A program made the position numbers and the translations under genes. This document shows positions 273 through 63,241 of a stretch of DNA of 64,000 bases, in pieces (position 1 is the first letter of the stretch; the number at the start of each line of letters is the position of its first letter). Source of the stretch: a virus (taxonomy: Duplodnaviria > Caudoviricetes); IMG/VR virus record IMGVR_UViG_3300020037_003123, positions 3,412 to 67,411 of that record; one strand, written 5' to 3'. Under the pieces are notes generated by a model. The model saw nothing but the letters and a program-made list of their open reading frames with translations, made no database searches and had not been told where the DNA came from.

Positions 273-740
273 TTATTTTAAATTAAAGTTTTCATTTTTT
301 AATAATATTAAATCACTAAGGTCTTTTGGTCTACCATATGATACTTTTGCTTGTATTATTTCTAATACTGAATTAACTTCATAATAATTATGACTCCATT
401 TGTATTTGAGACCACCACCATTAACAGGATTATTAGCAAGTAGAATATTGAGATATAAACCTTCTTTTTTGAATTTATAATTAACAGTACTAAAGTATTT
501 AGTATCGTCTACTCTAAAATTAGACATTGCTTTTATATAGTCTTTCTGTTTATCTGTTGGGTTGTTTATTATAACATCTAAATCATCCGATTTACGAGAA
601 AATTGTAACCCATGTAATTTTAAAATTAATGAACCACCTAATTTTATATTTGATGAACCATCTGGTGTCGTAAATGATAATTCTTTTAAATCATCAAGTA
701 TTTTATGAAATACTTCTAAATATTTGTCTAATTCTTGCAT
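273..740 (-). CDS. Putative nucleotidyltransferase-fold protein
   Basis: LGGSLILKLHG...SDDLDVII resembles the hG[GS]-x-DxD signature of the Pol-beta nucleotidyltransferase superfamily. Confidence 0.55.
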   Translation of the reverse strand: MQELDKYLEVFHKILDDLKELSFTTPDGSSNIKLGGSLILKLHGLQFSRKSDDLDVIINNPTDKQKDYIKAMSNFRVDDTKYFSTVNYKFKKEGLYLNILLANNPVNGGGLKYKWSHNYYEVNSVLEIIQAKVSYGRPKDLSDLILLKNENFNLK

Positions 741-816: not shown

Positions 817-1707
817 TTATACATTTACCGTTTTATCCCAAGCCGCTATGTGTAGCCGTGTAAGACCGCGGAAGCGGTATTTCTTGGCTAATTCAAGACA
901 GAATTGAGTACGCTCTTCAAAATCAGCAGCATCATCTAATCCTGGCATACACACTACATTTTTAAGAGGTATATTGAATGGTACTATAAAATCACGGAAT
1001 ATTTCCTTAACATCATCTTCCGTTGAAATAACAAATTTAAATTGGTAATTTGAATGTTCCATTATACGCTCTATAGCTCCTGGAATTATACGTTGTTTTG
1101 ATGGAAGACCTGAGTTAGATAGCTTTGGTGAGCAGTTGATTTGGTCTATTATTTTAAATAAATCATCTTCAATTACTACGGTACCGTTTGTTTCAATTTC
1201 ATTATAGTTATGTCTTACAATCAAATCATTCTCCGGTAATCTCCAAGCATATTCTTTGCCAGGAAGTGTTGTTGAAGGATCTACTTGTAACAACCAATAT
1301 TTATGAAAATTAACAATAGCTTCCTGATGTCCTTTAATTGTAGGTTCACCACCAGTCCAAATGATATGGATAGTACCATTTTTAATATCATCGTAGATAC
1401 CTTGTTCTTTCCATCTGTCAATTAGATACTGAAACTCCTTATCTTCACCTCTCCATAACCATTGAGATGTACTGTCACAAGTCCAAGTTGCTTTACCTTC
1501 AGCATGTAAATCACCAACAAATATTTCACCATCTTCTAATGATTTTTCTTTCATTAGCTTATTAGCGAATAAACGGGACATACCGCAAGTTAAGTTACAA
1601 GTACCTAAACGTACGAAGTAAGATGGAACACCAGATGAAATACCTTCACCTTGAATACTGTAGAAATCACTACTGATAAGTAGTTTATTTGGATCTATTT
1701 TGCTCAT
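817..1707 (-). CDS. queE: 7-carboxy-7-deazaguanine synthase (radical SAM)
   Basis: FYSIQGEG...FVRLGTCNLTC...CDS, WTGGEP, EIETNGT, CSPKLSNSG and C-terminal RLHIAAW; que cluster context. Confidence 0.92.
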   Translation of the reverse strand: MSKIDPNKLLISSDFYSIQGEGISSGVPSYFVRLGTCNLTCGMSRLFANKLMKEKSLEDGEIFVGDLHAEGKATWTCDSTSQWLWRGEDKEFQYLIDRWKEQGIYDDIKNGTIHIIWTGGEPTIKGHQEAIVNFHKYWLLQVDPSTTLPGKEYAWRLPENDLIVRHNYNEIETNGTVVIEDDLFKIIDQINCSPKLSNSGLPSKQRIIPGAIERIMEHSNYQFKFVISTEDDVKEIFRDFIVPFNIPLKNVVCMPGLDDAADFEERTQFCLELAKKYRFRGLTRLHIAAWDKTVNV

Positions 1708-2053: not shown

Positions 2054-2497
2054 TTATTTTGCCTTTTCTAGGTATTCTTCTATTGTAGTTTCTAAATAAT
2101 GAAATTCTCTATGACAGTTTGAACATAATGGAATGCACTTTTCTAATTCTGCTTTAGTTACATTTACTCCTCTTATTGATGTACCTATACTAAATTTTTT
2201 TTCAGTAGGATCTAAATGATGAGCATCTATAACATAGTGTCTTTTATCTCCACACTTAATACAGCCTTGAGACTTCCATTCATCAATAATGTTTTTGCGT
2301 TTTAATGAATGAGCTTTTGATTGTTGTCTCCATTTATCTTTATTATTCTGTCTGTAGTTTTCAGTTCTAATTGCAGTACATTGTTTACATACACTTAGAT
2401 ATCTATTTCTACTTTTATCAAATGGAAATTGTTCTGTTTGTTTTTCTTGTTTACAATCTATACATGTTTTCATAATAATATGTTTTAGGGTATTCAC
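2054..2497 (-). CDS. Free-standing HNH endonuclease with zinc fingers
   Basis: CxxC pairs, DAHHLDP and CIPLCSNCHREFH. Start is GTG at 2497 or ATG at 2473. Confidence 0.8.
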   Translation of the reverse strand: MNTLKHIIMKTCIDCKQEKQTEQFPFDKSRNRYLSVCKQCTAIRTENYRQNNKDKWRQQSKAHSLKRKNIIDEWKSQGCIKCGDKRHYVIDAHHLDPTEKKFSIGTSIRGVNVTKAELEKCIPLCSNCHREFHYLETTIEEYLEKAK

Positions 2498-2532: not shown

Positions 2533-3375
2533 TTATTTTCCATGAGCTGCTAATACTTTTTTAACATGATCTGTTACTACATCCCACGATACTATACCAC
2601 CTTCATCTTCATATGTTACTGGATCTTTGCGTCCTAAATTAAGGAATGCTTCTATACGCTCAACAGATGCTGCTGATTTATAATCACTATTTCCTGATGG
2701 ATATGGTTTATAACTTGTGTTAGTGCGCTTATATACTTCATCAAAGTCAAGACCTAACTTTTCACAACATTGTAATCCATCCTGTAATATTTCTAATTTA
2801 GTTACCTCTAAATAAGGAGTATAGAAATTGACTAATTCGCTATTCCAATTACCTAACTTAAATGCTTCCATATCAGCATCTCTAAATTCTTGTCTACAAT
2901 CAGGATAAACACTGAAATCTCCAGCATGAATACCTAATGCAATATCTACTCTTTGTCCTACAGAGCAATCGTCACCAATGTTTTTAGTTGCTATTGATAA
3001 TGCAACTGCTTGAATCAATGAACTGAATATTTTGTTACGATTAGGTACTACAGTTGCTTTCATGTTTTCTTCAGCGTAGTGACCTTCAGGAACATCAGCA
3101 CCACCTGTTACAAGTGCTGAATTTAATAGTTCAACTAATCCTTCTAGTTTAATTACTTGATGTTTAACTCTTGGAAATGGTGGTAAATACAATTCAATGT
3201 TGTGTTGAGCATTAATATACTCAACTAATGCTTGTGCTCTTTCTAATTCAACACTATGTTTTTGTCCGTAATCGAACGATAGTGCTGTTACCTCGTAACC
3301 ATTTGCTAATAGGTGGAGTAATAGTGTACTTGAATCCATTCCACCGGATAGACTTAAAACTGCTTGTTTTTTCAT
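2533..3375 (-). CDS. queC: 7-cyano-7-deazaguanine (preQ0) synthase
   Basis: SLSGGMDSST PP-loop, FDYGQKH, VVPNRN, HAGD..YPDCR.EF. Confidence 0.95.
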   Translation of the reverse strand: MKKQAVLSLSGGMDSSTLLLHLLANGYEVTALSFDYGQKHSVELERAQALVEYINAQHNIELYLPPFPRVKHQVIKLEGLVELLNSALVTGGADVPEGHYAEENMKATVVPNRNKIFSSLIQAVALSIATKNIGDDCSVGQRVDIALGIHAGDFSVYPDCRQEFRDADMEAFKLGNWNSELVNFYTPYLEVTKLEILQDGLQCCEKLGLDFDEVYKRTNTSYKPYPSGNSDYKSAASVERIEAFLNLGRKDPVTYEDEGGIVSWDVVTDHVKKVLAAHGK

Positions 3376-3393
3376 TTGTTTAAATTAATTAAA

Positions 3394-3437
3394 TAAGGAG
3401 CGTATTGTTTTGTTGATCGATTAGCCCCATAACCGAT
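3394..3437 (-). promoter_or_regulatory. Candidate H-type RNA pseudoknot in the queC leader
   Basis: Sense AUCGG-UUAUGGGGCUAA-UCGAU-CAACAAAACAAUAC-GCUCCUUA. The loop pairs with the 3' segment at 7 of 8 positions; the element ends 18 nt before the queC ATG. Confidence 0.45.
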
Positions 3438-3458
3438 TTTATTAAAATGGTAATTCAT

Positions 3459-3695
3459 CTAAATCAATATTTCTGAATTCTTTCTCATCTCATCAGCATC
3501 TGGTGTTTTAAAATACCATTTTAGAAATGATTCCGGATACAACATTATCTCTCCTGTGTATTTTGCATTCGATACATGTCTTGTTTTAAATCCTACATTT
3601 AATTCAGCAGCGCGAGTTGCTACTTGTTTTCCTAATTCACTACCTGCAGCGCGTTTGAGGTAGTCGTACAATGATAAAAATTTTTCTTCTAACAT
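3459..3695 (-). CDS. Hypothetical protein; C-terminus altered by a 5-nt duplication
   Basis: Intact ORF in the operon. An alternative frame gives DEKEFRNIDLDELPF-stop at 3442 if one GATGA copy is removed. Confidence 0.65.
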   Translation of the reverse strand: MLEEKFLSLYDYLKRAAGSELGKQVATRAAELNVGFKTRHVSNAKYTGEIMLYPESFLKWYFKTPDADEMRKNSEILI

Positions 3696-3701
3696 AACTC
3701 T

Positions 3702-4487
3702 TTATTTTAAAAATTGTTTAAACTTATTTACGTTAAATATAATATCTTCTTTTTGCTCACTCAAATCTTTTTCAAAATAAAATTCAAGTTTTTCTTTTGG
3801 TTTCCAATTAATACCATTATCCCCATAACGAACACATTCAGCACCTACTAAAATTGGATTTGATGTATCACCTGATTTAATAAAGGTCCAATCTGCATGT
3901 ACCATATATTCTTGTGGTAATGAAGCACCTAAAATATGATGATAAACTGTTTTATCTAAAATACCTGTTTGTAATAGGTGTCTAATGAACTTCATTCTAC
4001 CATACATTTGAGCATTAAGTAAACTTAATTCAGGGTACATATCTTGATATGCTATACTTGAATGATTAAATGCGATGTGTTTATAACCTAAAATTAATAA
4101 ATTGTTATATGTTGAAGTAAGTTCTTCTAATGTTTTACCTTGACATACAGCCATTAATTCAACACCTTCAGGTAGATTTGGTTTATGAACGTTCATCCAA
4201 TGTTTAGCATTTCTAATAGTAGCGGCTGAATCGTTCCATTCATCAGGAACGATGAATACATTTGGTTTAAATGCATATATTTTTTCTAATAGATCTTCAG
4301 TTGTATGAGTTACACCCTCAAACAATCCATTATCCATAATAATAAAACGACCATCTTTTCTAGCTTTTAGAAAATATATTTCATATTGCATGTATTTGTC
4401 GATTAAATGCGGAAGCATATAATCATAATCATTCCACTCGTATCCGTGGTGCATTAATGATAAAGGTAATTCGTGACTTATTTTCAT
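3702..4487 (-). CDS. Divergent tRNA-guanine transglycosylase/DpdA-like TIM-barrel protein
   Basis: IMDNGLFE, VPDEW, HILGAS and SGDTSNP resemble TGT-fold motifs (DSG.F, PD, H.LG, S.DSS); lies between queD and queC. Start moved to ATG 4487, just after the queD stop. Confidence 0.65.
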   Translation of the reverse strand: MKISHELPLSLMHHGYEWNDYDYMLPHLIDKYMQYEIYFLKARKDGRFIIMDNGLFEGVTHTTEDLLEKIYAFKPNVFIVPDEWNDSAATIRNAKHWMNVHKPNLPEGVELMAVCQGKTLEELTSTYNNLLILGYKHIAFNHSSIAYQDMYPELSLLNAQMYGRMKFIRHLLQTGILDKTVYHHILGASLPQEYMVHADWTFIKSGDTSNPILVGAECVRYGDNGINWKPKEKLEFYFEKDLSEQKEDIIFNVNKFKQFLK

Positions 4488-4488
4488 A

Positions 4489-4965
4489 TTATTCTTCGTA
4501 TATTGCTGAATTTTTACCATGTTCAAAGCATTCTACTTTGATTACTTTACAACGACCTGCATCTGTTTTAGATAATACATCGTTAAACTTAGCATAAACT
4601 AATTTAGCTAGATTTTCACAACCCATTTTCTCCATTACACGTAAATGTAATAGATTCATTTGTTCCATAGACATGAATATATCTAAATATGGATCGTCTT
4701 TTTCAATTAGTGTAGTATGGTCAAACATATAATCCATCCAATCTTTCAAACCATTACCTTTTGGTGCTGATTTAAAACCACCGAAATCAACAATCCAATT
4801 CATATCGTCTAATTGATTTTCTTCTAATGGTTCAGTAGATGCAAACCATACTTTAAAATAAATTCCATAACCGTGAAGCAACTGACAGTGTGAATGTTGT
4901 GCTCTCCATTGACGAATAGCTACTGAGTAGTTGTCAAATGTTTTTGTTGAAATATAACGTCCCAT
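4489..4965 (-). CDS. queD: 6-carboxy-5,6,7,8-tetrahydropterin synthase
   Basis: HSHCQLLHGY, WIVDFG, FDH, CENLA and C-terminal VECFEH. Confidence 0.92.
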   Translation of the reverse strand: MGRYISTKTFDNYSVAIRQWRAQHSHCQLLHGYGIYFKVWFASTEPLEENQLDDMNWIVDFGGFKSAPKGNGLKDWMDYMFDHTTLIEKDDPYLDIFMSMEQMNLLHLRVMEKMGCENLAKLVYAKFNDVLSKTDAGRCKVIKVECFEHGKNSAIYEE

Positions 4966-11698: not shown

Positions 11699-12264
11699 AA
11701 CTTATTTGATTTAGTTCTGTTAGCTTTTTTAGTTAATGGTTGTAAATTAGTATAATGATAACATTTTTTTCTTTCATAGTCATCATACAAATTAAAAGAT
11801 GAACGAGGACGTATATGATCTATTTCCCAATATTTACCATGATTTTCCCAATTCATTTCTGGTTCAAATTGAGACTCCAGGTGTTTAATTAGTGATATAA
11901 TATCACATCCAAAGAAATCAAAACTATTTTTAATAGACCTGATATGATTTACAAAATACACATCTAATTTATTACAATGAGCAAAATAAGGATCTGTTTT
12001 TATTTTATTTTGTTTCCATTGTTTAACGTATGCTATTTTCCTATCTTTATTATTTTCATAATACTGAGTGTTATACTCAGGGTTCTTTTGTTGCCAGTTA
12101 ATAGTATGTGATTTAGCTTTATCAGGATTATTTTCAGCCCATTTTAGATTAGCTTTATGGCTACATTGTTTACATATTCTAGCTAATCCATCTTTAGATG
12201 ATTTGTTCTTATAAAAAGAACCTATAGGCAACTCTATCTCACAGTGTTTACATATTTTTGTCAT
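11695..12264 (-). CDS. Free-standing HNH endonuclease
   Basis: N-terminal CKHC...CKQC; C-terminal MNWENHG..WEIDHIRP.SSF...CYHYTNLQPL...NRTK. Confidence 0.8.
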   Translation of the reverse strand: MTKICKHCEIELPIGSFYKNKSSKDGLARICKQCSHKANLKWAENNPDKAKSHTINWQQKNPEYNTQYYENNKDRKIAYVKQWKQNKIKTDPYFAHCNKLDVYFVNHIRSIKNSFDFFGCDIISLIKHLESQFEPEMNWENHGKYWEIDHIRPRSSFNLYDDYERKKCYHYTNLQPLTKKANRTKSNKL

Positions 12265-12328
12265 AATTTATTATTTCCAATAAATATATGAATCCTGTGG
12301 GAAAACACAGAAGCCTATAGGGTTCTAT

Positions 12329-15023: not shown

Positions 15024-15799
15024 AACGTGTTTGATTTATCTCTATTTCCTAATTCATTATACCCAAATGACTCAGCAATAGAGGTTGTTTTAAATAATGG
15101 TTGTGTATTGGTATAATGAAAACATTGTTTTTGTTGTTCTATATCAGTTAAATTAAATGAATCACATGGTTTAATATGGTCAATTTCCCAAATTATACCA
15201 TGATTATTCCAATTCATTTCTGGTTTAAATTGTGATTCTATGTGTTGTTTATATTCTTTTATGGTACATCCTAATAATATTAGGATTGAACTTTGTTTTG
15301 TGTTTGTTTTTAATGCTTGGTTGAATCTTCCTCTTAAATTTAACAATAATTTAAAATTAGTATCATTTTTATACCGTTCTCGTTGTCTTTTATTTTTTCT
15401 ATCTTTATTATTTTCATCCCACTGTTTACTCTTTAATATACAATGCTCTTTATTTTCAATATACCATTGTTTAACATATCGTTTAATTTTATCTTTATCA
15501 GTGTGATATTTTTGTTTTTTATATTCTTTAACTTTATCAATATTATTTTCTCTATATTGTTTAGATTTTTGTTTATATTCTCCAGAATTTTGTTGATATT
15601 TTTCTTTATAATATTCTAATATATCTTGTTTATTTTGTTGATATTTTTCTTTTGATTTAATAATATATTTTTCCTTATATTGGGCGTAATGATTCTTTTT
15701 ACATTCTCTACATTGAGTTTGATATCCAGTTTTAGATGAATTGCTCTTATTAAATTCAGTTAATTCCTTATATTGCTCACATTTTTTACATTTTATCAT
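15020..15799 (-). CDS. Free-standing HNH endonuclease
   Basis: CKKC...CREC, Lys/Tyr/Gln-rich linker, WEIDHIKPC.SF...CFHYTNTQPL. Confidence 0.8.
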   Translation of the reverse strand: MIKCKKCEQYKELTEFNKSNSSKTGYQTQCRECKKNHYAQYKEKYIIKSKEKYQQNKQDILEYYKEKYQQNSGEYKQKSKQYRENNIDKVKEYKKQKYHTDKDKIKRYVKQWYIENKEHCILKSKQWDENNKDRKNKRQRERYKNDTNFKLLLNLRGRFNQALKTNTKQSSILILLGCTIKEYKQHIESQFKPEMNWNNHGIIWEIDHIKPCDSFNLTDIEQQKQCFHYTNTQPLFKTTSIAESFGYNELGNRDKSNTL

Positions 15800-55290: not shown

Positions 55291-55353
55291 AAATATTATT
55301 TCCAATAAATATATGAAGACTTTTTAGGCTATGAATCTGTCTATATGTTATAT

Positions 55354-57694: not shown

Positions 57695-60352
57695 TTAGCG
57701 TTTTTTGGTTTCATTAACGTGTTGTCTTATTAAATCACGTACTTCATCTAAATGTTGTGGGTTATTAGCAAGATATTCACGTACTAGATAGTTGCGTACT
57801 TCAGCTAGATTACGACGTTGTAATACCGCCATTAATTCAGCTGGTGAATTTATTGGTTCCATTACGTTACCTTGCTCATTACCAAATAATACATAGTTTC
57901 TATTGCCTGGTTGTACGTTAATAGTTGCTATTATTTGTTGGTTTGCTAAACGAATAACATATATTTTACTAGGTCCAACATTAATAACTTGTCCTACTTG
58001 ACCTGCGGTACCTAATCTATTATTAACACGTGTTGCTCCTCTACTAGTATTTGGATTTTCACGTTGAGCATTAGTTACATTTAATCGTCTAAAATCAGAA
58101 CGTGGTAAACGTAAAAATGCTGTTTCTAATCCTAATTCTGTCATTCTTTCAGTTACATTTATGTCTCCAGCTGCTGCTGGTGCTGCCGGACGAGGGGCTC
58201 TAACATTTTGAACAACACCCGCTGGTCTACCTCTTCTTGGAGCGCCCGGCGCTGCTTGAGGTGCTACGGCTACTGGTGTAGCTTCATCTGGTGTAGCGGC
58301 TGTTAATTGGCGAGCCATTGCTGGAGGGATATTAGCTTTAACTAATTTACCTGTACTATCTGATAATTTAAAACTTTCTCTTGGATTAGCTTTATTAACC
58401 ATATAAAAAACACCATTTCCTCCTATTACGGGGGCATATTGGTCTGTTGGACTAAATGGTGGTTGTGCTCTAAACCATGCTTTTCTTGATTCTGTGTTGC
58501 CTGAACTTCTCCATATTCTCACTAATTCTTCACCAGAGTATACTTTGTTTTCATTTCTTAAATAAGCAAAATAAGCTTTCCATGATGCTTCATCCATAAC
58601 TCTTCCCGTAGTATATACTCTCCAATCTCCTCCATCTCCAAAATTAAGGGATGAAAAACTATTATACATAGCCCTATCATCTACCTGTTTTCCAACTAAA
58701 GTATATCTACTTTCACCATCAGGAGTAAAAATTATCATTAGTCTCCCATTGTAATCAGGTAATACTCTTTTATCATACGGTGTTGCATTAACAATAGATA
58801 CAAAAGCATCTTTATCTAATGAAGATGGAAGATTACTTCTATCACTAAGTGAATCTTTAATTACGTTAATTGCTCCTTGTTGGAATGATGTGTTTTCTTT
58901 TTCATCACCTAATGTTTTTTGTACTTCTTCATCATTAAATGGTATTTTAGAGATTTTACCGTCTTTTATTTTGTATGATGAAAATGAATTAGCATCAATT
59001 AATATTTCTCCGTCTTCTACTTTTTTAACTATAATAGCAGAATCTTCAGTTGATTTAGCTTTTTCTATTATTTTATCAAGTACATTTTTATCAATTACAC
59101 CATCTGTTGCTAATTTAATCATAGCATTAAATGGTAATTTATCTAATTCTGGGTATTCAAGAATATATTTTGATGTGCGTTGGTTTAATTTAACATTAGG
59201 ATAATCATCTTCTGCTTGATATAAGCCCATAGAAATAACATCTCCTAATTTTAATTTAACTATAGTAGAACCGTCTTTAGTAACATACATTCTTTCATCA
59301 GCTTTAATATTCCATTTATCTAAGACTACTAATAATTTTTTAACATCAAATGGAAGTGTTTCAGATGATAGAAGTTTAGTATCAACTTTATTTCTTAAAT
59401 TAGCTGTTATTGATTTTCTATCTTGACTACTAAATTTATCTAGGCTAGCTAATAATAAATTAGTATTTAAAATGCCCGGGGTAATAGCAATAAATTCTGC
59501 TAATTGAGGGTATTGTGGAAGATATTTTTCTACGAATTCTTTATTAGATACATCGCTAAATAATTCACTATCTTTTCTAACAACTAAATATTGTTGTTTA
59601 ATACTAAAAGGTAATTTTATCCATTCTCTAATACTAATAGAGGTATATTGGTACTTTTTTTGAAGTTGTTCTTTGCTATTTAAAGGAATATATTTTAATA
59701 CACTCCTAATATTAGGTATATCATTTAACCAAGGTATTTCAGATAGTAATGTGCTAAAAGACATTGGTCTAGATTCATATGGGTCATTTTTTCTATTAGT
59801 ATAGACGTATTTTTTATTTTCATCAGATACATCTCTAACCTGTATGGCAACAAAACTTAATTTATCTATATCTGATATATTATTATTTTTAGCTAAATAA
59901 AATGTTGGATATCCTCTATCAGATGAATAACGATAACTACCAAATGATCCTCTAGTTATACACCATTTTTCACCACTACCATAAGTAATACAATTATCTT
60001 CTTTAGAGCCATTCCATATTACAATACCATTTTCATTGTATACTACGTCTGGTGTTTGATCTTCATCATCTGATTTTGTTTCGGCACCTTTAGACGCTGT
60101 AACTAGTTTAATTAATTGAGATAAAGACCATTTATTTAAATCCTTCTCAGTAATTTTAGGTGAATTTTTTAATACATCGAAACGTTCAATATATTTTCTT
60201 AATTGATCTTCTGATATTGTAATATTTAAATCGTCTGCTTCTTCACTAAATTTTTTAATGAAGTCTTTCATAACTTTTTCGCTATAAGCTTCGTTTAATT
60301 CATTTTTCCAATTATGGACAACGTGTAGTATAAATTTATCTATTGGTCTCAT
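57695..60352 (-). CDS. Large hypothetical protein (885 aa)
   Basis: ELNEA site near the N-terminus, CI.YG.G.KWCIT motif, Ala/Pro linker near the C-terminus. Confidence 0.8.
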   Translation of the reverse strand: MRPIDKFILHVVHNWKNELNEAYSEKVMKDFIKKFSEEADDLNITISEDQLRKYIERFDVLKNSPKITEKDLNKWSLSQLIKLVTASKGAETKSDDEDQTPDVVYNENGIVIWNGSKEDNCITYGSGEKWCITRGSFGSYRYSSDRGYPTFYLAKNNNISDIDKLSFVAIQVRDVSDENKKYVYTNRKNDPYESRPMSFSTLLSEIPWLNDIPNIRSVLKYIPLNSKEQLQKKYQYTSISIREWIKLPFSIKQQYLVVRKDSELFSDVSNKEFVEKYLPQYPQLAEFIAITPGILNTNLLLASLDKFSSQDRKSITANLRNKVDTKLLSSETLPFDVKKLLVVLDKWNIKADERMYVTKDGSTIVKLKLGDVISMGLYQAEDDYPNVKLNQRTSKYILEYPELDKLPFNAMIKLATDGVIDKNVLDKIIEKAKSTEDSAIIVKKVEDGEILIDANSFSSYKIKDGKISKIPFNDEEVQKTLGDEKENTSFQQGAINVIKDSLSDRSNLPSSLDKDAFVSIVNATPYDKRVLPDYNGRLMIIFTPDGESRYTLVGKQVDDRAMYNSFSSLNFGDGGDWRVYTTGRVMDEASWKAYFAYLRNENKVYSGEELVRIWRSSGNTESRKAWFRAQPPFSPTDQYAPVIGGNGVFYMVNKANPRESFKLSDSTGKLVKANIPPAMARQLTAATPDEATPVAVAPQAAPGAPRRGRPAGVVQNVRAPRPAAPAAAGDINVTERMTELGLETAFLRLPRSDFRRLNVTNAQRENPNTSRGATRVNNRLGTAGQVGQVINVGPSKIYVIRLANQQIIATINVQPGNRNYVLFGNEQGNVMEPINSPAELMAVLQRRNLAEVRNYLVREYLANNPQHLDEVRDLIRQHVNETKKR

Positions 60353-62735: not shown

Positions 62736-63241
62736 ATTTTATCTTTTTTACTTCTATTAAGTGATTTATAAAGAGGTTGGGTATTTTTATAGTTAAAACA
62801 TTTGTATATATTATCTTCTATAGTTAAATCAAATGAAGAACAAGGAATTATATGATCTACTTCCCATATTAATCCATGGTTATCCCAATTCATATCATTT
62901 TGAAATTGAGATTCTAAATATAATTTATATTCATTTAAAGAACAACCTAAATATTTTAATGTATTATTATTTTTATATGTTTTTTGTTTTTTTAAAATTT
63001 GATTTAATCTACATCTAAGATTACTTTTTAATTTGTGATTATGATCTATTTTATATTTTTCTTTTTCCCATTTAAGTTTATAAACTTGGTTGATTTTATA
63101 TTGGTTTATATACCAATCTTTCTTTTTAATATTTTCTTTTACACATTGTTTACAGTAATAATATAAACCATCTTTAGTATTGTTTTTTTTAGAAAAATTA
63201 TCTTTAGTTTTTTCTTTTTGGCATTTTATACAAATTTTCAT
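62732..63241 (-). CDS. Free-standing HNH endonuclease
   Basis: CIKC...CKQC; WEVDHIIPCSSFDL...CFNYKNTQPL...NRSK. Confidence 0.8.
   Translation of the reverse strand: MKICIKCQKEKTKDNFSKKNNTKDGLYYYCKQCVKENIKKKDWYINQYKINQVYKLKWEKEKYKIDHNHKLKSNLRCRLNQILKKQKTYKNNNTLKYLGCSLNEYKLYLESQFQNDMNWDNHGLIWEVDHIIPCSSFDLTIEDNIYKCFNYKNTQPLYKSLNRSKKDKI

Follow-up and report, generated by a model that had tools for sequence, protein, structure and literature searches.

The leader of queC in this phage contains a 41-nt H-type pseudoknot that, on comparative grounds, is kept in many uncultured Bacteroidota phages, and that is built like the class I preQ1 riboswitches (preQ1-I) yet stands outside that family. On balance we think it is probably a new, phage-only riboswitch of preQ1-I-like design, whose likely ligand is preQ0 or a neighbouring 7-deazaguanine and which would tune translation that starts without a Shine-Dalgarno (SD) sequence. 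This reading is suggested by the combination of a tiny structured RNA, an invariant junction between covarying stems, an exclusive link to one biosynthetic cluster in very different phages, and a fixed spacing to the AUG; ligand binding, the identity of the ligand and the direction of control are inferred.

The 64,000-nt stretch analysed here (the window) has about 31% G+C and derives from a 67-kb IMG/VR virus record estimated to be 41% complete. The genes around the element lie on the minus strand and, in order of transcription, are queD, a 274-aa ORF, a 78-aa ORF, the element itself, queC, a gene for an HNH endonuclease, a small ORF and queE, with folE just beyond the start of the window; the element and its flanking ORFs are part of a 7-deazaguanine cluster. 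The stop codon of the 78-aa ORF is 21 nt before P1. We also observe that the 274-aa ORF overlaps the queD ORF by 38 nt, and that the HNH gene is inserted between queC and queE within the cluster. Coordinates of these features, and of those in related phages that are referred to below, are given in Table 1.

Table 1. Positions of the pseudoknot, its parts and the genes around it, together with features noted in related phage sequences.
Feature	Sequence	Position	Strand	Remarks
queC-leader H-type pseudoknot	window	3437-3397	-	41 nt
P1 5' strand, AUCGG	window	3437-3433	-	pairs with UCGAU, 3420-3416
P1 loop, UUAUGGGGCUAA	window	3432-3421	-	12 nt
L1 dinucleotide, UU	window	3432-3431	-	invariant in 44/44 sequences
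L1 variable part, AU	window	3430-3429	-	1-6 nt in relatives
P2 5' strand, GGGGC	window	3428-3424	-	inside P1 loop; pairs with 3397-3401
L2, UAA	window	3423-3421	-	invariant in 44/44 sequences
P1 3' strand, UCGAU	window	3420-3416	-	pairs with AUCGG
L3, A-rich linker, CAACAAAACAAUAC	window	3415-3402	-	14 nt; ends in AAUAC
AAUAC box, 3' end of L3	window	3406-3402	-	invariant in V1 and V1b
P2 3' strand, GCUCC	window	3401-3397	-	last base at -22 from AUG
Spacer to start codon	window	3376-3396	-	21 nt, A/U-rich, unstructured
queC, 7-cyano-7-deazaguanine synthase	window	2533-3375	-	Pfam PF06508, 1.4e-38; PHROG 1550, QueC-like
78-aa ORF, upstream	window	3459-3695	-	no family match
274-aa ORF between queD and 78-aa ORF	window	3702-4526	-	PHROG 19058 (unknown function) only; no Pfam match
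queD	window	4489-4965	-	
HNH endonuclease, homing-type	window	2054-2497	-	PHROG 2255, 1e-29
queE	window	817-1707	-	
Basic peptide gene	L114	4196-4327	+	gut phage
Basic peptide gene	L084	3553-3657		gut phage
Basic peptide gene	L100	2761-2892		gut phage
Basic peptide gene	L102	~441-569	-	gut phage
Basic peptide gene	L139	3705-3827		gut phage
SpoVS-family gene, 94 aa	L114	3806-4090	+	PF04232, Alba-like fold
QueF-like ORF	G001:C1 (contig of L007)	102825-103454	-	QueF domain matched twice, weakly (26 and 21 bits)
tmRNA with three flanking tRNA genes	L013	3722-4341	+	tmRNA 117 bits; ~400 nt downstream of queC

The preliminary description of this DNA had drawn a P1 of AUCGG and UCGAU, a 12-nt loop, an A-rich linker and a 3' segment, and all of these are found on the minus strand exactly where it placed them. 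Its pairing of the 3' segment with the loop is also borne out, with GCUCCUUA (3401-3394) and UAUGGGGC (3431-3424) pairing at seven of eight positions, one of them a G.U, and with 18 nt between GCUCCUUA and the queC ATG at 3375. The AAUAC at the end of L3 is 26 nt from the queC AUG in this phage. Two A-U pairs outside a U.U mismatch can lengthen P2; these outer pairs are specific to this phage, and the comparative support described below extends to the five junction-proximal pairs only. Taken alone, the leader folds no better than chance (minimum free energy -7.3 kcal/mol, z of +0.53 relative to shuffled sequences). The run AACAAAACAA, which the preliminary description had matched to the 3' end of the T. 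tengcongensis aptamer, turns out to be a coincidence, as it is not conserved in the family; the exact run is present only in this phage and in one relative (L001), with other relatives having A(U/C)AAAAUAAUAC at this place. An intrinsic terminator on the plus strand was entertained, as a T-run follows the hairpin on that strand, and was rejected because there is no plus-strand gene and the G.U pairs fit a minus-strand RNA only.

A search of IMG/VR with the QueC protein gave 80 loci, of which about 20 have leaders with a clearly homologous element, and in these the loop and the 3' tail vary together. A pattern scan of IMG/VR, in which only parts of P1, L2 and L3 were fixed and both strands of P2 were left free, yielded 38 distinct matches, and in 36 of them the tail is complementary to its own loop, with the other two being chance matches. 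When 44 distinct sequences are aligned, 89.8% of cells are paired, compared with 75.2% for column shuffles, and none of 500 shuffles reaches the observed value; as a control, sliding the partner by 1-3 columns brings pairing down to 24-47%. The preliminary description had pointed to covariation among queC leaders as a check on the fold, and nine of the ten pairs do change on both sides (n = 44 distinct homologous leaders), including all five P2 pairs. Within P1, the second pair is found as UA (22), CG (11), AU (5) and GC (4), and the closing pair as G.U (41), CG (2) and GC (1). At least four contiguous P2 pairs counted from the junction, allowing a one-base offset, are present in 42 of the 44 sequences, and helices anchored at the junction average 5.36 bp, as against 2.90 bp when loops are cross-paired with the tails of other sequences; 28 distinct complementary forms of P2 occur among the homologues. 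Model-based re-alignment (A3) left the register of the one-base-offset P2 tails unaltered, and these pair counts are therefore conservative. Compensatory changes preserve both helices in homologous leaders, from which we conclude that the element is real, and that the small H-type knot originally described, with its A-rich L3 and its place directly before phage queC, is conserved in homologues. The G.U pairs confine the structure to the RNA strand in the sense of queC.

The order of parts is constant across the family, with a 5-bp P1 followed by UU, 1-6 nt, a P2 5' strand of 5-7 nt that is usually purine-rich, UAA, the P1 3' strand, an A-rich L3 of 14-16 nt that ends in AAUAC and whose 5' portion varies in both sequence and length, the P2 3' strand, an A/U-rich spacer of about 20 nt, and the AUG. 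The invariance of UU, UAA and AAUAC arises partly by construction, as the search patterns fixed these motifs, and only the QueC-anchored samples are unbiased in this respect. We therefore give weight to a second sample that was retrieved through a different QueC protein alone, in which 41 of 65 distinct leaders have the element and all 41 keep UU, UAA and AAUAC; this sample includes a subtype, V1b, with a P1 of CGC/GCG and a different L3. RNAalifold predicts pairs between the UU of L1 and the two A residues of L2. No covariation occurs there, whereas the adjacent P1 pair takes four forms, which argues that these nucleotides are constrained by more than pairing, and invariant unpaired junction nucleotides amid freely varying pairs, as seen here, are the usual signature of a binding pocket. 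In 41 of 43 leaders, 23-28 nt (mode 26) separate AAUAC from the AUG, a spacing that holds with unrelated spacer sequences and over two different downstream genes. RNAalifold on the homologues gives no conserved alternative (anti-pseudoknot) helix, and no terminator is conserved among the homologous leaders.

A covariance model (R1) built from the alignment recovers the window site with 64.3 bits (E of 6e-12), gives exactly one match per locus in 425 kb, and finds one copy in each of two complete phage genomes (181 kb and 183 kb), in both cases before queC. A second model match in the window (58363-58406, 19 bits) is inside an 885-aa ORF and is attributed to chance. Among 185,579 species genomes, the strict pattern for the form of the element described here (V1) gave a single match and no true copy; the match is without P2, is on a contig of 47% G+C beside a polyketide-synthase-like ORF, and was dismissed as chance. 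Similarly, blastn of the 58-nt element against cultured phages gave chance matches only, with no V1 in the cultured phages of GenBank, and a Listeria-phage fragment with 79.5% identity was set aside as it is without UU, UAA and P2. In these searches, the strict form of the element was found only in uncultured phage contigs.

Of the 38 distinct pattern matches, 30 immediately precede a QueC homologue (63-76% identity across the matched part where the ORF is complete), and six precede a tiny basic ORF; in these gut phages a QueC-family gene comes after that ORF, within a deazaguanine cluster. Those six are from phages of 35-49% G+C, and the carriers overall span 27-49%. The gene upstream differs among motif-bearing loci, and in many lake phages the element starts 0-7 nt past the upstream stop codon. 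In the gut phages the element is followed by a basic Ala/Gly/Arg/Lys peptide of 34-48 aa, a strong terminator-like hairpin, the QueC-family gene (Pfam, 7e-15), and then further cluster genes and folE. Four of five gut lineages have a predicted Bacteroidota promoter before the element (TTTG or TTG, 19 nt, TAHHTTTG), with -7 boxes of TACATTTG, TATATTTG or TATCTTTG, and these putative promoters identify the hosts as Bacteroidota. In F. johnsoniae the G of the -7 box is at -5 (PMC6847099), and because of this placement the predicted +1 coincides with the first base of P1 in three of the four promoter-bearing lineages and is one base upstream in the fourth; the predicted +1 would thereby mark the 5' boundary of the RNA independently of covariation. 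The nearest cultured relative, as judged by queC, is Flavobacterium phage vB_FspM_immuto.

The basic peptide of the gut phages (MARRAATPAP...ASKS) retains a C-terminal SKS in most instances and has no Pfam match; it could bind DNA or belong to an attenuation device. In the gut phages a SpoVS-family gene (placed in L114 in Table 1) immediately precedes the promoter and the pseudoknot, and its product is a possible RNA-binding partner. A related phage contig has a tmRNA together with tRNA genes downstream of its queC (Table 1).

Shorter relatives of the element are found before the same QueC family. Leaders of the V2 type have UU, UAA and AAUAC with an L3 of 8-10 nt. The V3 type is 34 nt and reads A-NNN-U, NN, GCC, UAU, A-NNN-U, NNN, AAUACC, UGGCA; a pattern scan gave 67 distinct V3 matches, 63 with a covarying 5-bp P1 and 60 with QueC downstream. 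AAUAC is present in all V2 leaders and in the six V3 leaders that are protein-anchored or from cultured phages. V3 shares with V1 its topology, the closure of L3 by AAUAC, a distance from AAUAC to AUG of about 23-30 nt, and the covariation of P1, but differs in having UAU rather than UAA as L2, an L3 of about 8-9 nt, and two variable bases rather than UU in L1. Its P2 is fixed as GCC/GGC in five pattern-free leaders, and elsewhere this was set by the search pattern. The V1 covariance model did not detect V2 or V3. All four forms (V1, V1b, V2 and V3) have the same layout of P1, L1, P2 5' strand, UA(A/U), P1 3' strand, an L3 that ends in AAUAC, and P2 3' strand, with AAUAC 23-30 nt before the AUG of a QueC-cluster gene, and the element in the window conforms to it. 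The leader in immuto is of the V3 type (ACGU UC GCC UAU ACGU UAUUAAUACC UGGCA) and is unannotated in its record; this phage grows on Flavobacterium sp. LMO8, and the two constitute a cultured phage-host pair that makes the related variant experimentally tractable.

The element had been described as preQ1-riboswitch-like, and of this the riboswitch-like H-type knot stands while membership of class I does not. The comparison with Rfam preQ1 models that had been suggested gives no match, with RF00522, RF01054 and RF02680 (Rfam 15) all negative in window positions 3300-3520 both at the gathering score and at E <=10. At its gathering score (39 bits) RF00522 matches neither the window nor any of 20 related loci, and at E <=10 it matches neither the site on the 67-kb record itself, nor a gut-phage copy (L114), nor the immuto leader; the Rfam scans otherwise returned snoRNA, miRNA and sRNA noise far below threshold. 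The preQ1-I riboswitches, with examples from B. subtilis (queC), T. tengcongensis, C. antarcticus and E. coli, are H-type knots whose specificity base, a cytosine, immediately precedes the 3' strand of P1, giving UC in type I and AC in the other two types, II and III (PMC11625349). They have U6 in L1 and an A-rich L3 of about 6-8 nt ending in A30, the last A, which reads the ligand, and type I adds a UU atop P1, while its C31 follows this A and interrupts the tail (PMC11625349, PMC8752633). Our element is like these in being very small, in lying before queC, in having a P1 of about 5 bp whose loop pairs with the 3' tail, in the UU after the P1 5' strand (as in types I and III), and in an A-rich L3 with a conserved C at the tail end, reminiscent of type I C31. 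It differs in that an A (A3421 in the window) occupies the position of the specificity C in 44 of 44 sequences and in 41 of 41 that are QueC-anchored, that L2 is fixed as UAA, that L3 runs to 14-16 nt with a fixed AAUAC at its end, that P2 is 5-7 bp rather than 3-4 bp, that no SD is present in or near P2 (which ends at -22) and no terminator is conserved downstream, and that at least one carrier genome is without QueF. The preliminary description was thus correct in its caveat that the loop ends in A instead of C and that P2 is longer, and in allowing for a variant switch or a protein operator. The preQ1-II (RF01054) and preQ1-III (RF02680) riboswitches have an HLout pseudoknot with an extra embedded hairpin, whereas the element has two helices only. 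Our literature search found no description of the element; a 2024 review of preQ1 riboswitches does not mention phages (PMC11625349), and a study of phage deazaguanines does not mention riboswitches (10.1101/2023.04.13.536721).

In the riboswitch reading that we prefer, positions 3437-3397 of the minus strand would act in cis, as the aptamer-like core of the queC leader RNA, with P1 and P2 (5 bp each) enclosing UU, UAA and AAUAC at the helix junction. The ligand would be a 7-deazaguanine intermediate of the phage DNA-modification pathway, with preQ0, the product of QueC, as first choice and its substrate, CDG, as second. A metabolite that precedes QueF is favoured over preQ1 because a complete genome carrying V1 (G003) has FolE and no QueF was found in it. 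A complete 181-kb genome with V1b (G001) has a two-domain QueF-like ORF of 317 aa next to queC, and immuto, a V3 carrier, has QueF, so that the metabolite common to these carriers would be preQ0 or an earlier intermediate. The QueF-like ORF of G001 may be a bimodular QueF.

Bacteroidota initiate translation without SD pairing, and need the stretch between about -20 and +20 to be unstructured, as well as upstream adenines, possibly read by bS1 (PMC6847099). The end of the knot at -22 would coincide with the 5' edge of the region that has to stay unstructured for initiation, and the A-rich L3 would be docked on P1 in the folded knot. A plausible consequence is that a ligand-stabilised fold leaves the 30S subunit and bS1 a smaller single-stranded, A-rich stretch to land on, and reduces queC translation as a feedback OFF switch. 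The OFF direction is a guess, to which we lean only slightly, because no competing helix is conserved, and the switching mechanism is read from the position of the knot since there is neither a conserved alternative helix nor a terminator. A narrower formulation, which is possible and which we put forward tentatively, is that this is a phage-only class sensing preQ0 or CDG and not preQ1, in which the ligand-pairing C is no longer in L2 but is the C of AAUAC that closes L3, and control without an SD operates by folding away the A-rich landing zone.

Several observations weigh against a riboswitch. The knot ends at -22, bordering the initiation region without lying inside it, so that its folding might matter little or work the other way, and pairing of UU with AA could extend P1 to 7 bp and generate a classical pseudoknot that is free of ligand. 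The specificity C of preQ1-I is absent, the next gene downstream in gut phages is the small basic peptide with its terminator hairpin and not queC, and about 40-60% of close queC homologues are without the leader element. One alternative is that the knot has no sensor function and is a constitutive structure serving to mark or insulate the region where queC translation initiates, for example by protecting the 5' end from decay, by acting as a barrier that uncouples upstream translation, or by organising a standby site for SD-less initiation. With UU and AA paired, the element is a textbook H-type knot with a 7-bp P1, a 5-7-bp P2 and a 1-nt L2, its A-rich L3 suits minor-groove triples, no alternative conformer is conserved, and it is located exactly at the predicted transcript 5' end in gut phages and just past the upstream stop codon in many lake phages. 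However, UU/AA and AAUAC neither covary nor drift, unlike other positions, and an insulator would be expected before many genes, whereas there is one copy per 180-kb genome and always at the deazaguanine cluster; we consider a purely constitutive role quite unlikely. A divergent but ordinary class I riboswitch that senses preQ1 would account for the shared topology, gene (queC) and size class, and for the type I-like UU atop P1 and C closing the A-rich tail. It is very improbable in view of the negative RF00522 searches, the replacement of the specificity cytosine of all three types by an invariant A, the length of L3, the lack of an SD in P2, and the complete carrier genome without QueF, which cannot itself make preQ1.

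A protein-bound translational operator, in which a phage or host RNA-binding protein recognises the knot and its loops and represses or activates queC translation, is an alternative that we hold to be unlikely. Its models are T4 gene 32 and E. coli rpsO, whose pseudoknot operators mediate translational autoregulation by proteins; like the element, these operators are 5'-leader pseudoknots beside an unstructured A/U-rich initiation region that control translation without a competing hairpin. They regulate the gene of their own binder, whereas here the gene encodes a metabolic enzyme and there is no co-occurring partner protein. A protein footprint would account for the invariant loops and the constant distance to the AUG as well as a ligand pocket does, the A/U-rich initiation region that follows the knot is unstructured as in T4 gene 32, and the restriction of the element to phages makes a phage-encoded partner plausible. 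Candidates are a pathway enzyme, either QueC or a DpdA-like transglycosylase, and the SpoVS/Alba-fold protein encoded directly upstream in gut phages; transglycosylases of the TGT/DpdA fold bind nucleic-acid stem-loops, but QueC is not known as an RNA binder, and the SpoVS-like gene was seen in the inspected gut phages only. Moreover, no protein gene consistently co-occurs with the element, the upstream gene varying by locus, and a 41-nt element that stays with one pathway in phages of 27-49% G+C is a classic riboswitch pattern. The remaining alternative, a pseudoknot that stimulates -1 frameshifting or readthrough of the upstream ORF, is suggested by the end of that ORF in many lake-phage loci, where an A-run (...GAUAAAAAAUAA) immediately precedes P1. 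A stimulator of this kind calls for a slippery heptamer 5-9 nt upstream, within an ORF that continues. In the window, however, the element is intergenic, beginning 21 nt after the upstream stop codon and with no slippery run, and in gut phages it begins at the predicted transcription start; these two contexts rule out frameshift stimulation as a general explanation. In addition, the -1 frame at one locus with such an arrangement (L083) ends about 15 codons past the slip site, inside the leader, and the spacing is constrained relative to the downstream AUG and not to the upstream stop, making this the least credible of the readings, with hardly any claim on belief.

Through the deazaguanine pathway phages replace up to all of their guanines and escape restriction (PMC6884629; 10.1101/2023.04.13.536721). 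If the element binds a 7-deazaguanine, it would be a riboswitch owned by viruses, and not borrowed from a host, that acts on this guanine-replacement pathway, and if the ligand is preQ0 or CDG it would be the first riboswitch dedicated to viral DNA hypermodification. It would also offer a model of how RNA switches govern translation in bacteria that do without Shine-Dalgarno pairing. The preQ1-I-like scaffold without the specificity base would amount to a natural experiment in ligand recognition, and at 41 nt the element would rank among the smallest aptamers, of value for structural work and as a sensor of preQ0-type metabolites.

Elsewhere in the window, a repeat of about 159 nt is present in three plus-strand copies (11727-11885, 15088-15246 and 62764-62922) with 67-75% identity, and there are shorter leader-like repeated blocks, such as 12269-12292, which is identical to 55294-55317. 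These repeats and blocks are probably shared promoter or leader cassettes.
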